From contig JAHLWS010000082.1 in the NCBI GenBank assembly GCA_019057795.1, forward strand, positions 32,001 to 96,000: DNA of 64,000 bases. The letters run 5' to 3'. The notes beneath the pieces were generated by a model. It saw nothing but the letters and a program-made list of their open reading frames with translations. It made no database searches and was not told where the DNA came from. The translations under genes and the position numbers were made by a program. The DNA comes from Promethearchaeota archaeon. Its GTDB lineage: Archaea > Asgardarchaeota > Lokiarchaeia > Sigyniarchaeales > SOKP01. Positions 1 through 5,632 of the stretch are shown in pieces. How positions within the stretch are numbered: position 1 is the stretch's first letter; each line of letters begins with the position of its first letter.

Positions 1-2478
1 TTTATCCCATATACCGAATTAATGAAGAAGTTAGGGATAGAACAAACAGGACAATTAAATTTTCATTTGAAAAAGCTTAATAATTTAGTGAGTAAAAACA
101 AAAAATCGTATTATTTAACTGATGATGGTAAAAGAGTTTTAAGGATATTAGGATTAAACAAAAGAATTTTATCCGGAGAGGAAATAGAATATTTGAAATC
201 AAAGGGGAGCGAAATAAACAGAATAGGTGTTATTATCTGTAATTGTAATACAGAAGTTTCAAATGTCCTTAACATTAACTCCTTAGAAAACTATGTAAGT
301 AAAATAAATAATGTAGTTTCAGTTAAAATCCTTGATAATTTATGTCAAGAAAAAAACCAAGATAAAATTAATAATTGGATTACTGATAACTTCATAAATA
401 AAATTGTCATCGCTGCTTGTTCTCCTAAAACACATCAACATATATTTGAACGTCTTTTTCAAAATATAATTGATAATGCAAATATTGAGATTGCAAATAT
501 AAGAGAACAATGTTGTTGGGTACATTATTCAAGTAAAAAGCACATTGATAGTCTTTTAACTCTGAAAAAAGCGCAATTACTTATAGAAGCCTCAGTTAAT
601 CGAGTAAGTCTTCAAAAACCAATTAAAATAAAAAGAGTTGAAGTTGAAAAAAGTTGCGCTATTGTTGGAGGTGGGATTGCGGGTATGAACACGGCGTTAA
701 ACTTATCAAGGGCAGGTATCAAGTGTTACCTAATTGAAAAGTCTCCTACATTAGGAGGTAAAGTAGCAAGATGGCAAAAGGTTTCTAAAATGGGAGATTG
801 CTCTGCTTGTTTCATCTCTGAATTAATTGGGGAAATTGTAAAAGAAAAAAAAATCGAGATCTTGACAAATACGGAAATAATAAGTGTATCGGGAGAAGTT
901 GGCAATTTTACTATAGGTTTAATTAAAAAACCTCGCTATATTGATGAGACTAAATGCACAGGTTGTAAACAATGTATTGATGTATGTGCTCGAGAGAAAG
1001 TTAATATGTATGAATTTGGATTAACAAATAGAAAAATAATTCACTTTCCTTTTCAATACTGTTATCCTTATGTCCCCGTTATTGAAGATGAAGATATTAA
1101 TAACTGCCTTGAGTGTGGAGTATGTGAACGCGCTTGTGCAAATAAAGCAATAAATTTAAGAGAAAAACCTAAGGAATTAAGAATTAAAGTAGGCGCAAAA
1201 GTTATAGCTATTGGTTCAGATCTTTATTCAAATTTAAAAGAATATAATTATAATCCACGAAATAATGTTATAACTTCAGCAGAATTTGAACGAATCTTAT
1301 CTTCAGATGGCCTAACTGATGGAAAGATCGTAAAATTGTCTGATGGGAAACCAGTAAAAACAATATCAATTATTCAAGAAGTAGGACCTTCAAATTATCT
1401 ATGTGAATATTCGGATATTTTAACCCTAAAGTATATAGATGTTATTAAAGTAAAGAATCTTGATTGTGAAGTTAATGTTTTTTACGATTTAAGTAAACTA
1501 AAAGAAAAAGACGAGATAATACTAAAATCTACTCATCCTAGATTTCTTTACGCTAATAATGTATTAATTGAGACAAGAGAGAATATTAATTATGTAGTTG
1601 CGGATTCTATTGAGTTTCAGAGTGATTTGATTGTTTTAAATCTTAAATTAATTCCAAATGAGGATCTGAAATCTCTAAGAAAGATTATGGACTTCACTTT
1701 AAATGATTATGGTTTTATGAGTGAAGAAACTTTAGCTTCTGGTATTTATGGTGTTGGAACAATATTTGGGCCATTAAATTATCACTCTACTATTGCAACC
1801 ACAAATAACATAGCGTTAAAAGTAATATCACTTCTTTCAAATGATTATTTAATAACAGAATATACTGGAATAGAGATTAATGAAGACAAGTGTGGATTGT
1901 GTAGCCTCTGCGTTAATTCTTGCCCTTACAATGCAATAAGCATAAACTCCGAAAAAATTGCTGTTGATAAGTTTAAATGTAAAGCTTGTGGTATGTGTGT
2001 CAGTGTTTGTCCTACTAATGCCATCGAAATGAATATAAATACATCAGAAAAGATTTTAAAAACGATCGAAATTTTCTCAAAATTCAATAAAAAACCAAAA
2101 ATCATCGCTTTTTGTTGCCAATCGTGCGGTTACGCTGCCGCTGACGATGCAGGATTAAAGAAATTGTTATATCAGCCTAATGTTTTTATAATCTCTGTTC
2201 CTTGTACCGGGCGTGTTGATACTGAATTCATTATTAAATCTTTTGAAATGGGGTTTGATGGAGTTATGATTATCGGCTGTAGAAAGGATTCTTGTAGATA
2301 TATTGATGGGATTGAAAAATTAAAAAAAAGAGTTGGGCTTTTAAAAAAAATTCTAGGACCAAAGTTAAGCAGACGGATAATAGTGATGGGTTTAAACGGA
2401 GTTGAAGGACATATATTTGCTGAAATCTCTACTAAATTCTATAATTTATTAAAGGAGGAGATTAAAAGTGAGGCTTAA
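1..2478 (+). CDS. Winged-helix (ArsR-like) domain fused to degenerate heterodisulfide reductase subunit A (HdrA) and C-terminal MvhD [2Fe-2S] domain; probably 5'-partial
   Basis: Frame is open from base 1 (FIPYTEL then MKKLGIEQTGQLNFHLKKL..LV.K...YYLTDDG, a wHTH pattern). HdrA motifs: IGVIICNC, ACSPKTH, NIREQCCWVH, GGGIAG, DCSAC, two ferredoxin CxxCxxCxxxC pairs. MvhD motifs: FCCQSCGY, PCTGRVD, GCRKDSCRY. Confidence 0.88.
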   Translation, partial: FIPYTELMKKLGIEQTGQLNFHLKKLNNLVSKNKKSYYLTDDGKRVLRILGLNKRILSGEEIEYLKSKGSEINRIGVIICNCNTEVSNVLNINSLENYVSKINNVVSVKILDNLCQEKNQDKINNWITDNFINKIVIAACSPKTHQHIFERLFQNIIDNANIEIANIREQCCWVHYSSKKHIDSLLTLKKAQLLIEASVNRVSLQKPIKIKRVEVEKSCAIVGGGIAGMNTALNLSRAGIKCYLIEKSPTLGGKVARWQKVSKMGDCSACFISELIGEIVKEKKIEILTNTEIISVSGEVGNFTIGLIKKPRYIDETKCTGCKQCIDVCAREKVNMYEFGLTNRKIIHFPFQYCYPYVPVIEDEDINNCLECGVCERACANKAINLREKPKELRIKVGAKVIAIGSDLYSNLKEYNYNPRNNVITSAEFERILSSDGLTDGKIVKLSDGKPVKTISIIQEVGPSNYLCEYSDILTLKYIDVIKVKNLDCEVNVFYDLSKLKEKDEIILKSTHPRFLYANNVLIETRENINYVVADSIEFQSDLIVLNLKLIPNEDLKSLRKIMDFTLNDYGFMSEETLASGIYGVGTIFGPLNYHSTIATTNNIALKVISLLSNDYLITEYTGIEINEDKCGLCSLCVNSCPYNAISINSEKIAVDKFKCKACGMCVSVCPTNAIEMNINTSEKILKTIEIFSKFNKKPKIIAFCCQSCGYAAADDAGLKKLLYQPNVFIISVPCTGRVDTEFIIKSFEMGFDGVMIIGCRKDSCRYIDGIEKLKKRVGLLKKILGPKLSRRIIVMGLNGVEGHIFAEISTKFYNLLKEEIKSEA

Positions 2479-3232
2479 ATTTTTAATTACATCTTTAACA
2501 TCTTGTACTGGATGTATATCCACATTAATATCGTTAGATGTATTTCCACAATTTCTTGAGAGAACGAAAATCGAATATTTTCCATTTATATCTGACAATT
2601 TAGAGATCAAAGAATGCGATGTAGCGCTAGTAGAGGGGTGCGTATCTGAAAAGAATCAAATCGAATATCTTCAAGAAATACGAAAAAATGCAAAAAAACT
2701 ATATGCATTAGGTACATGCTCAGCATTTGGGGGGATTCTTAGCCTCTCAAATAAAAAAGGATCGTATCCCATTTCCAAGTTTGTAGATGTTGATGGTATT
2801 ATACCGGGATGTCCTCCTCCGTCCATACTTTTAGGAAATTGTTTATTGAGGTTAGTTGAGAATAAAAAAATCAAGCTAAGCTTAAAAAATATGTGTTCTA
2901 CTTGTCCTTTAAACAACCAGGCAAAATTAGATTTACCATTAACAATAGAAAAGATTGTTCCAAGGAACAATGAAATTCGCTTTCCGGAAGAAAATTTATC
3001 GTGTTTTTTGAACGATGGGATTTTATGTTTAGGTCCTATTACTCGAGATGGCTGCGACCATCTCTGTATAAATCAAGGATTACCATGTGAAGGATGTTTA
3101 GGTCCGGTTTCAAAGGGGTTTACATCGAATTTAATCAATTTCTTAAGCCTTTTTAACCTTTCTAAAGATTTAAGAAAATATAAAGGGATATATTATAGGT
3201 TCTCAAAATCACCTATGGGAGGGAAGGTTTGA
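2468..3232 (+). CDS. mvhG: [NiFe]-hydrogenase group 3 small subunit (MvhG-like)
   Basis: CTGC, VEGCV, GTCSAFGG, PGCPP, CSTCP and CLGPITRDGC..LC...PCEGC Fe-S motifs; overlaps the upstream stop; GGAGGAG upstream. Confidence 0.88.
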   Translation: MRLKFLITSLTSCTGCISTLISLDVFPQFLERTKIEYFPFISDNLEIKECDVALVEGCVSEKNQIEYLQEIRKNAKKLYALGTCSAFGGILSLSNKKGSYPISKFVDVDGIIPGCPPPSILLGNCLLRLVENKKIKLSLKNMCSTCPLNNQAKLDLPLTIEKIVPRNNEIRFPEENLSCFLNDGILCLGPITRDGCDHLCINQGLPCEGCLGPVSKGFTSNLINFLSLFNLSKDLRKYKGIYYRFSKSPMGGKV

Positions 3233-4533
3233 TGGATAAAGTTGTAGAAGCATGCACAAGGGTTGAAGGTTGTGGAAACTTAAACATTTATTTAAAAAAT
3301 GATGAAATTTATCAAACTGAATTAAACTTTTCAGTATTTAGAGGATTTGAAAATATTTTAGTAGGCAAAAAGTTATTAGATCTTCCAAAAATAGCATCTA
3401 GAATTTGTGGACTGTGCTACGCATCTCAAACAATTGCAAGTTGCAAAGCAATAGAAGATATATACGGAATAGAACCATCACACCAATCAATTTTGCTCAG
3501 AAGGCTTTTATTATCCGGAGAATTAACAAAATCGCACATTATGCATTATTTTTTCCAATCCTTTCCAGATTTATTAAAAATATTTAAAATTAATACTACA
3601 ATTAACGATCCTTATAATTTAATTAATTACAATCCTCATTTAACGACAAATATTTTTAATTTAATAAAAATTGGTTCAGAAATAAATAAATTAATAGGAG
3701 GAAGGGTGCTACATCCAATTACTCCGATTCCTGGAGGATTAATATTCAATCCCACTCGAAAGAGTTTAATTTTTATGGAGAAATATCTAAAAAAGGGAAT
3801 TTACTACATAGAAACTATAATTGAAAATTTTATAGATTTATTTTCTGCTTATGATCCTCCTACAGAATTTAATCTTTCTAATCCTATATATTTCAGCTTG
3901 AAAAACAATACGGGGTTTGATAGATATGAAGGAGACCTCAGAATTGAACAAAATGAAACAACTTACGACGATTTTCAAGCAAAAAATTATTCAAAATATT
4001 TTGATAAAGACCCTAATCTTTATGGGATTATGTTTAAGTCAAATTCGAAAAATGAAATTTTAACAGGACCAATAGCGCGCTATAAGTTAACTCAAAGTTA
4101 TGGGATAGATAAAATATCCGAATATTTAAGCAATTTTGGAAAAAAATGGAAAAGCAATTTATTATTTTTAAACTTTTTACAATTAATCGAAAGTTATTAT
4201 GAAATTCAAAAATGTGTTGAAATATTCAATACTACTTCACTAAAAAGTAGAACAAAACTTAAACAACTGAACTCAATAAAAAAATCAAATGGAATAGGGG
4301 TTATCGAAGCACCAAGAGGCATACTAATGCATCATTATCATTTAAATAAAGCTAAAATCGTTGATCAAGTAAAACTTTTCATTGCAACCGAAATAAATTT
4401 GCCTATTCTTAACAAAATGATCACTGAATATGCTAAAAAGCTATATGAAAAAGAAGATATCGATTCTGTTAAAGAAAAAATTCAAATAATGATAAGAGCA
4501 TTTGATCCTTGCATATCGTGCGCTTCTCATTAA
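3232..4533 (+). CDS. mvhA: [NiFe]-hydrogenase group 3 large subunit (MvhA-like), no C-terminal extension
   Basis: TRVEG, RGFE, L1 RICGLC, GGRVLHP, GPIAR, EAPRG, L2 FDPCISCASH-stop; TGATG stop/start overlap at 3230-3234. Confidence 0.9.
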   Translation: MDKVVEACTRVEGCGNLNIYLKNDEIYQTELNFSVFRGFENILVGKKLLDLPKIASRICGLCYASQTIASCKAIEDIYGIEPSHQSILLRRLLLSGELTKSHIMHYFFQSFPDLLKIFKINTTINDPYNLINYNPHLTTNIFNLIKIGSEINKLIGGRVLHPITPIPGGLIFNPTRKSLIFMEKYLKKGIYYIETIIENFIDLFSAYDPPTEFNLSNPIYFSLKNNTGFDRYEGDLRIEQNETTYDDFQAKNYSKYFDKDPNLYGIMFKSNSKNEILTGPIARYKLTQSYGIDKISEYLSNFGKKWKSNLLFLNFLQLIESYYEIQKCVEIFNTTSLKSRTKLKQLNSIKKSNGIGVIEAPRGILMHHYHLNKAKIVDQVKLFIATEINLPILNKMITEYAKKLYEKEDIDSVKEKIQIMIRAFDPCISCASH

Positions 4534-4591: not shown

Positions 4592-5632
4592 TTGAAAGAA
4601 AATCTCTTAAATAACGCCAATAAAGAATGTCCATTTAGCGAATTGTGTGAGACTCTTTTGTTTTATTTTGATGAGACTATAGGCCATGTCCCACTTCTTA
4701 TTTGTCCAGAAAATGCGCTAGATGATGATTCGGGAAAAATGCGTCTTATAAGATACCATCCAATTTGGTTTTTAGAACTTAAAGATAAAACTACAATTAA
4801 CCGAATCGATTTAGAATACGGTAATCAAATGTATTTTGCGAAGAAATTTATTATTGAATCTAAGAGGGTTAAAAGAAGAGCAGGGTCTTTTCAAAAATCG
4901 GGTGAAATAGTTGTGTTGATACTTGTGTTACCTACAGATTTAGATATTTTTGGGGGAGAAGTATTAAATTTATTAACGAAAAAATTAGTCGACAAATTTG
5001 AAAATACGCTTTATCTTGTAATCGAGTCAGAAATTGCGAAACTGGAAGTTATTAAAACGGAGAAAATAATCAATAAGATAAAAAAAGGAGAACAAATAAA
5101 AGAAGAAATAAAAGCTATAGTTAACCTTACTTGTGAGGAATATTTTTCATCAGTAATTAAACAAACTGATGCGACCTCTTTCAAATTGCAAAAAGCAATT
5201 TCTTATTTAACATTTAAAGGAATCGATATTGACCACATTGTTATAAATGCTCAAAATGAATCGTTTTCTAAAATTCGATTATTTGATTATGATAGAGTTG
5301 TTCAACAAAAATTAGGAATAAAAGCTCAATTTAAAATAATGAATATAAATATTAGTAACAATTTTCAGGAAATAGAAGTTTTAGTAAAGAATAAGAGTAA
5401 AAAGGAATTCAATGATCTCATTGTCCGAATTACTTACATTAAAGAATTTTTTGAAAAAGAGGTATTAAACGAAAAAGTTGAAAAATGCCTTCCCGAAGAA
5501 GAATTATTGTTTATAACGCCTGTAATTAAAAATACAAACAATTATTTGTTTTCCATTATTGAAGAACATTCTAATAGAACAATGTTTTCTAATAAAATTG
5601 ATTTAGAATTAATTAAAAGTCGTCCCTACTAA
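4592..5632 (+). CDS. Hypothetical protein with putative N-terminal uDENN/longin-like domain
   Basis: 346-aa ORF; LLFYFDETIGHVPLLICPE resembles the first strands of uDENN domains (F-D/H-x3-G-x6-P). Confidence 0.5.
   Translation: MKENLLNNANKECPFSELCETLLFYFDETIGHVPLLICPENALDDDSGKMRLIRYHPIWFLELKDKTTINRIDLEYGNQMYFAKKFIIESKRVKRRAGSFQKSGEIVVLILVLPTDLDIFGGEVLNLLTKKLVDKFENTLYLVIESEIAKLEVIKTEKIINKIKKGEQIKEEIKAIVNLTCEEYFSSVIKQTDATSFKLQKAISYLTFKGIDIDHIVINAQNESFSKIRLFDYDRVVQQKLGIKAQFKIMNINISNNFQEIEVLVKNKSKKEFNDLIVRITYIKEFFEKEVLNEKVEKCLPEEELLFITPVIKNTNNYLFSIIEEHSNRTMFSNKIDLELIKSRPY

Follow-up and report, generated by a model that had tools for sequence, protein, structure and literature searches.

A tail-less group 3 [NiFe]-hydrogenase large subunit with glutamine at motif L1, encoded beside a winged-helix HdrA-MvhD fusion in an Asgard family

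The large subunit and its motifs

The window, a stretch of 64,000 nucleotides from a Promethearchaeota archaeon of the Lokiarchaeia (the source genome), opens on an operon of three genes, which encode a winged helix-turn-helix (wHTH) domain fused to HdrA and MvhD, a small hydrogenase subunit and a [NiFe]-hydrogenase large subunit, hereafter P0001. An earlier note on this DNA had drawn attention to three features of the large subunit, a Gln at the end of motif L1, the sequence TRVEGC near the N terminus and a C terminus that stops at the His of DPCISCASH, and all three are confirmed by translation and by alignment to Escherichia coli HyaB. The gene and its motifs are as follows.

3232-4533, + strand: [NiFe] large subunit P0001, 433 amino acids; matches PF00374 (8.3e-25), 7t2r_D (4.5e-51) and MvhA 5odc_F (5.9e-44)
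3259-3273, + strand: L0 motif RVEGC (Arg10-Cys14), with the proton-relay Glu12 retained and Cys14 in place of the usual His
3400-3429, + strand: L1 motif RICGLCYASQ (residues 57-66), with metal ligands Cys59 and Cys62 and with Gln66 for the usual His
4504-4533 including the stop, + strand: L2 motif DPCISCASH (residues 425-433, nucleotides 4504-4530) followed by TAA, with Cys427, Cys430 and the terminal His433 and no cleavable tail

The P0001 frame is open throughout, with no internal stop in the translation of window positions 3232-4533 on the + strand. Its ATG at 3232 shares one base with the stop codon of the small-subunit gene (TGATG), and its own stop, the TAA at 4531-4533, is followed two codons on by a further in-frame TAA. 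P0001 matches PF00374, the Pfam family of nickel-dependent hydrogenase large subunits, with 88.1 bits (cut-off 25.8). The best solved relatives all belong to group 3: Acetomicrobium HydL (7t2r_D), MvhA (5odc_F), the NAD-reducing enzyme 5xf9_D, and Frh and sulfhydrogenase chains. Both 7t2r_D and 5odc_F have His at L1 and carry about 25 residues beyond the L2 His.

Alignment of P0001 to HyaB via a bridge of group 3 sequences shows that HyaB Glu28, Cys76, Cys79, Arg509, Asp574, Cys576, Cys579 and His582 are all conserved. Cys59, Cys62, Cys427 and Cys430 align with Cys76, Cys79, Cys576 and Cys579, respectively, and are invariant in alignment A1, as are the proton-relay Glu12 (HyaB Glu28) and Arg362 of the PRG motif (HyaB Arg509). 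Gln66 is the counterpart of HyaB His83, and Cys14, within the stretch CTRVEGCG (residues 8-15), that of His30, a position at which other enzymes carry His. HyaB Asp118 was dropped as a conserved catalytic residue, since every group 3 row has Ser or Asn at the aligned position. A His directly after the second L1 Cys, found in many relatives (RICGLC-H-ASQ), was considered as a substitute for the L1 His and rejected because the position is not conserved: residue 63 is Tyr in P0001 and His, Tyr, Ser, Cys, Asn, Phe or Gln among its relatives.

At residue 14, 103 of 119 relatives carry His, and the position is highly variable over group 3 as a whole. Five states (Cys, His, Arg, Gln or Ser) occur there among 15 close relatives of at least 82% identity; judged from these alignments, Cys14 is a recent change. 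Among the same 15 sequences, residue 63 has four states (Tyr, His, Ser or Cys), and residues 14 (3271-3273) and 63 (3418-3420) both belong to the approximately 21 most variable of the 433 columns. Positive selection at these two residues is not claimed, as about one such variable column inside the motifs is expected by chance.

Gln66 and the C terminus among relatives

Relatives were gathered as the 120 best protein clusters at 90% identity, which are 51-93% identical to P0001. L1 Gln is present in 119 of them (120 of 121 with P0001 included), and each of the 120 complete sequences has the L2 His as its last residue. Among species-representative genomes, a scan gave 35 complete orthologous loci (at least 48% identity), each with Gln and no tail, which close with TAA, TAG or TGA. 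The earlier note had raised the possibility that the stop at 4531 is a sequencing error; this can be set aside because the same terminal His ends the protein in 120 homologues and 35 loci, with three different stop codons. It had also said that its reading would fall if most catabolic Asgard group 3 large subunits had L1 Gln and no tail, and the counts largely bear this out for the clade of P0001 and not for Asgard group 3 generally.

The gene order wHTH-HdrA-MvhD, small subunit, large subunit recurs in 30 of 36 loci, the remaining six being interrupted by contig ends. In GTDB-based samples, matches of at least 43% identity are restricted to the window's own family, in which 40 of 61 genomes have one; the organism names that NCBI gives to metagenome-assembled genomes (Hod-, Thor-, Hermod-, Odin- and Heimdallarchaeota) were not used for the distribution. 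In one of these 40 genomes, the window-type copy (G156:C51:14844-16037, 43% identity) contains four in-frame TAA codons and is apparently decayed. By these searches, a single GTDB family of the window's Asgard order conserves the module, which also has relatives among Jord/Freyarchaeia and Bathyarchaeota. The suggestion that Gln and the missing tail go specifically with wHTH-HdrA neighbours did not hold, as the same neighbour lies beside enzymes with His and a tail in the Jord/Freyarchaeia loci L038 and L039, and beside an enzyme with His in the Bathyarchaeota locus L048.

Order of trait gain

In a FastTree phylogeny of 143 full-length relatives, a set that contains no group 2 sequence, the sequences with Gln and no tail form one clade of 13 rows with 100% local support, in which one sequence (P0103) has gone back to His. 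Closest to this clade are a Gln clade with tails of 5-7 amino acids, P0123 (Gln, 11-amino-acid tail) and P0124 (His, tail-less), and all of these together make up a 20-row clade with 99% support. Six relatives thus combine Gln with tails of 5-11 amino acids, and P0124 has the other mixture, His without a tail. Next out on the tree are Jord/Freyarchaeia enzymes with His and tails of 7-8 amino acids, whose genes already follow one for a wHTH-HdrA-MvhD fusion, as seen at L039 (L038 is cut). Beyond them lies a Bathyarchaeota clade with His at L1 and no tail, which lacks the terminal His and has the same wHTH-HdrA neighbour with the HdrA Cys motif kept.

From this order of relatives we conclude that the wHTH-HdrA association predates both Gln and tail loss, that Gln was gained before the tail was lost, and that the tail had already become very short by then. 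On the 143-row tree, L1 requires four changes and the presence of a tail at least 11. His with no tail occurs in 27 of the 143 rows, including an Anaerolineae clade, so tail-less group 3 enzymes are not rare, whereas tail-less large subunits have been listed solely for groups 2b, 2d, 4c and 4e (PMC12134894).

Operon partners and surroundings

The two genes ahead of the large-subunit gene are as follows.

1-2478, + strand: wHTH-HdrA-MvhD fusion gene, 848 amino acids; its first 69 nucleotides lie upstream of the window, with the start codon at C82:31932
2468-3232, + strand: small subunit, MvhG-like, 254 amino acids; Pfam Oxidored_q6 4.3e-19, best PDB match MvhG 5odc_E (1.7e-31)

The fusion protein has Pfam matches to FlpD/MvhD (1.7e-32), to Fer4 domains and to an FAD-binding fold, and its N-terminal 72 residues match DUF7347 (2.2e-12), with additional weak matches to ArsR-type HTH domains (winged helix). 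Among solved structures, residues 92-713 match HdrA 8rvu_a (4.7e-105) and the C-terminal MvhD domain matches 8rvu_F (2.7e-21). The HdrA core retains both ferredoxin-type domains, and the small subunit retains Cys motifs that align with the cluster ligands of MvhG. No kinase domain was found in the neighbouring genes.

All three operon genes are under purifying selection. Their ratios of nonsynonymous to synonymous rates (dN/dS) against three close relatives (81-95% identity; synonymous divergence, dS, 0.12-0.46) lie at 0.19-0.32 (large subunit), 0.20-0.22 (small subunit) and 0.16-0.24 (HdrA fusion). Across Asgard loci, the wHTH domain is 54-86% identical.

Downstream of the operon, an open reading frame of 346 amino acids (4592-5632) has no Pfam match, adjoins the operon in only some relatives and is not counted in the module. 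Tetrahydromethanopterin one-carbon genes lie upstream of the operon and glycine-cleavage genes downstream. The former, at L005:4414-10182, are Ftr, an F420-type Mtd and an MtdB-like gene; with a gene for a Cdc48-type ATPase they occupy the 8 kb ahead of the window operon and are partly divergent from it.

A palindrome upstream of the operon

A perfect palindrome, TTGATAAGGAATATTATCAA, is located at L087:316-335 (C82:31716-31735), 265-284 nucleotides before the window start and 197-216 nucleotides upstream of the start of the fusion gene. It is the only exact copy of TTGAYAA-N6-TTRTCAA in the 4.95-Mb source genome. With one mismatch allowed, this pattern is found in 13 of 32 upstream regions of 250 nucleotides, against 0.075 expected from shuffles, and its density in upstream regions is 34-fold that of the rest of the loci; of the remaining matches, most lie 0.3-1.5 kb ahead of the wHTH gene. 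Palindrome-like sites are enriched before the orthologous operons of distant lineages, including Jordarchaeia L039. This distribution supports a DNA-binding role of a regulator, for which the fused wHTH is the simplest candidate.

Other hydrogenase and maturation genes

A second hydrogenase is encoded on contig 60 of the source genome, by an extended small subunit (438 amino acids), a VhuA-like large subunit that has L1 His and lacks L2, and a separate 50-amino-acid VhuU-like open reading frame (L001:2717-2868) with an in-frame TGA at the position of the first L2 Cys (D-C-TGA-L-S-C-A-A-H) and a 21-amino-acid tail. The genes run small subunit, VhuA, VhuU, HdrC, HdrB (L006:2367-6685), with neither HdrA nor MvhD alongside. 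Going by these features, the cluster is a split selenocysteine (Sec) [NiFeSe] hydrogenase; this Sec-containing family has been described before from Lokiarchaeia (PMC11227280). The window operon, with HdrA-MvhD and no HdrBC, and the contig 60 cluster, with HdrBC and no HdrA or MvhD, look complementary in gene content. The source genome also encodes HypC, HypD, HypF and one HycI-type endopeptidase (205 amino acids; L004:1345-1962, on contig 74), the last apart from the hydrogenase genes.

Across the sample of 61 family genomes, most carry a Vhu-type large subunit, and none was found in 8 of the 40 that have the window type. The window type is the sole PF00374 match in G049 (99% complete), G154 and G160 (both 96%) and G178 (93%); searches for group 4 and [FeFe] hydrogenases gave no match in G049, G154 or G160, and G178 was examined with PF00374 only. 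HypC and HypF are retained in G154, G160 and G178, and HypD in G154 and G160. A HycI-type protease is present in 54 of the 61 genomes, including these four, whose only detected large subunit is tail-less. The protease had been expected to be lost from genomes with only a tail-less subunit; as it is kept, its co-occurrence is uninformative.

Comparison with known systems

A close counterpart among characterized complexes is MvhAGD-HdrABC, the electron-bifurcating group 3c complex of methanogens (5ODC, 8RVU), whose large-subunit, small-subunit, MvhD and HdrA chains are the best or near-best solved relatives of the parts encoded in the window. The metal ligands are the same in the two, as are the proton-relay Glu and the Cys motifs of the small subunit, and in both the hydrogenase, MvhD and HdrA genes stand together. 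They differ in that the window enzyme has Gln rather than His at L1 and lacks the cleavable tail of about 25 amino acids, that HdrA and MvhD are fused and preceded by a wHTH, and that the Cys motif for one of the HdrA clusters is missing. In addition, the window operon has no hdrBC, and the hdrCB of the source genome is on another contig beside the Vhu-type hydrogenase. Asgard group 3c enzymes are treated in the literature as bifurcating catalysts (PMC11291895).

With the group 2b proteins HoxBC and HupUV of Cupriavidus necator and Rhodobacter, the window enzyme shares the L1 Gln and a large subunit made without a C-terminal extension (PMC5665086, PMC12134894), a resemblance that the earlier note described correctly. 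It was also right to regard the likeness as convergent: the solved relatives of P0001, all of group 3, and the tree, drawn from a comparison set without group 2 sequences, indicate that the two traits arose independently on a group 3 scaffold. The systems differ in other respects. Group 2b sensors are also characterized by low H2 turnover, by an active site held in the Ni-C state under H2 and by a target uptake hydrogenase in the same genome. The window enzyme is partnered by a flavo-iron-sulfur protein that carries a wHTH, no histidine kinase (HoxJ/HupT) or PAS partner is encoded nearby, and the window type occurs in genomes in which no other hydrogenase was found (G049, G154 and G160, with G178 partly tested). 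A review states that [NiFe]-hydrogenases other than H2 sensors all keep the L1 His, and that the Gln of the regulatory hydrogenase (RH) 'seems not to be involved in H2 sensing' (PMC5665086).

The best solved sequence relative of P0001 is the large subunit of Acetomicrobium mobile NiFe-HydABCSL (7T2R chain D; 4.5e-51 over residues 6-433), which differs in having L1 His, a 25-amino-acid tail and other partner subunits.

In PutA, a DNA-binding domain is fused to a flavoenzyme, and the redox state of the flavin governs repression of the protein's own operon. The window flavoprotein, from an unrelated protein family, is similar in its predicted N-terminal DNA-binding fold and in the operator-like palindrome that precedes its operon.

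Interpretation

We tentatively favour, at somewhat less than even chances, a working, lineage-specific hydrogenase of Mvh type (group 3c-like) that probably also passes redox information to its own DNA-binding partner. The large subunit would be the H2-activating subunit of a module completed by the wHTH-HdrA-MvhD fusion and the small subunit. As translated, it already has at its C terminus the His that in other hydrogenases becomes terminal through proteolysis, so that its maturation would skip the endopeptidase checkpoint, and Gln66 stands in place of the second-sphere L1 His. Both traits are inherited characters of the clade and arose in steps, Gln first, in ancestors with tails of 5-11 amino acids, and then tail loss. 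The subunit would turn over H2, probably at modest rates, and electrons would pass from the large to the small subunit, the MvhD domain and the HdrA flavin. The redox state set in this way may control the operon through the conserved wHTH and the palindrome, in analogy to PutA, a role suggested by the conservation both of the wHTH in the flavoprotein and of the palindrome ahead of the operon. An enzyme is favoured by the genomes in which the window type is the sole hydrogenase, as a bacterial-style sensor without a hydrogenase to regulate would be odd.

Several observations weigh against this account. HdrA residues 480-509 (window 1369-1458) lack the Cys-rich motif aligned to HCVGSRD...CSRVCC of methanogen HdrA, the cluster motif of the thioredoxin-reductase-like domain. 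The motif is missing in 33 of 33 Asgard orthologues, and the Bathyarchaeota orthologue L048 has four Cys there. We take the lost motif to be that of the putative cluster HA4, the high-potential exit towards the heterodisulfide (PMC12350162), and hdrB and hdrC were not found within the window operon. In G049, which is 99% complete and has the window-type operon and a HycI-like gene, there is no match to HypC, HypD or HypF, which may reflect either an assembly gap or a hydrogenase lacking its maturation genes. The large subunit also evolves fast. Leaving aside two close relatives, the window type is 45-58% identical between genomes, compared with 81-93% for the Vhu type, and it is the least conserved part of the operon (large subunit 48-57%, small subunit 55-70%, HdrA core 58-75%, wHTH 62-74%, ranges that leave out the closest locus, L007, at 84-88%). 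This rate fits a weaker or relaxed catalytic constraint and would favour a sensor. Finally, a regulator other than the fused wHTH could bind the palindrome.

A kinase-free sensor of H2 and redox state within one complex, whether pure or a PutA-like enzyme-repressor, in which H2 would set the redox state of the flavin and the flavin the binding of the wHTH at TTGAYAA-N6-TTRTCAA, is possible though rather doubtful. More narrowly, we consider it unlikely that the complex is a dedicated kinase-free H2 sensor, with a low-turnover site from which H2 would reduce the HdrA flavin by a dead-end path and switch DNA binding by the wHTH with negligible flux. Such a sensor would be consistent with the group 2b traits (PMC5665086, PMC12134894), with the conserved wHTH and the conserved upstream palindrome that is unique in the genome, and with the absence of hdrBC from the operon and of the presumed high-potential-exit motif from all 33 Asgard HdrA orthologues checked. 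It would also agree with a large subunit that evolves much faster than the Vhu type of the same genomes, and with the presence of that canonical enzyme in most genomes. Against it, eight of the 40 genomes show no Vhu-type large subunit, and the window type is the only hydrogenase found in G049, G154 and G160 (and in G178 by PF00374), where a sensor would have no H2-metabolizing enzyme to serve; both ferredoxin-type domains of HdrA are kept, which suggests exchange with an external carrier, and the RH Gln itself seems uninvolved in sensing (PMC5665086). The step that the earlier note had taken, from the two traits to a low-turnover sensory site, is not supported, because the traits are inherited characters of a whole clade and vary independently of one another and of the wHTH neighbour, and because tail loss is a small and recurrent change in group 3.

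An ordinary metabolic hydrogenase of Mvh/Hdr type without regulation, in which Gln and tail loss would be neutral or tuning changes and the wHTH a structural or dimerization module, appears quite improbable. The bifurcating role that the literature gives to Asgard group 3c enzymes (PMC11291895) argues for it, as do the intact catalytic residues and small-subunit Cys motifs, the purifying selection, the genomes with no other hydrogenase and the frequency of tail loss in group 3 (at least 11 changes). It accounts poorly for a palindrome that is unique in the source genome and enriched before the operon in lineages as distant as Jordarchaeia (L039), and for a wHTH that is better conserved than the catalytic subunit; with a cluster motif missing from HdrA and hdrBC beside another hydrogenase, the complex cannot be a canonical MvhADG-HdrABC. 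An artefact or decay, that is, an assembly error at the stop at 4531 or in the Gln codon or a decaying gene copy, has the G156 copy with its four in-frame TAA stops as a precedent and is effectively refuted by the open frame, the dN/dS of 0.19-0.32, and the recurrence of Gln and the same C terminus in 120 independent clusters and 35 loci with three stop codons.

Implications

No earlier mention of L1 Gln or a missing tail in Asgard enzymes was found in the open-access literature, and the convergence at the sequence level is new relative to two reviews (PMC5665086, PMC12134894). A large archaeal clade of group 3 violates the rules given in both, that the L1 His is kept outside H2 sensors (PMC5665086) and that tail-less subunits are confined to the listed groups (PMC12134894), and therefore neither Gln nor tail loss alone identifies a sensor. 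Maturation without a proteolytic checkpoint would be more widespread than listed. In this Asgard family, the fused DNA-binding domain and the conserved predicted operator make a direct link from H2 to gene control testable with few proteins and one DNA site.

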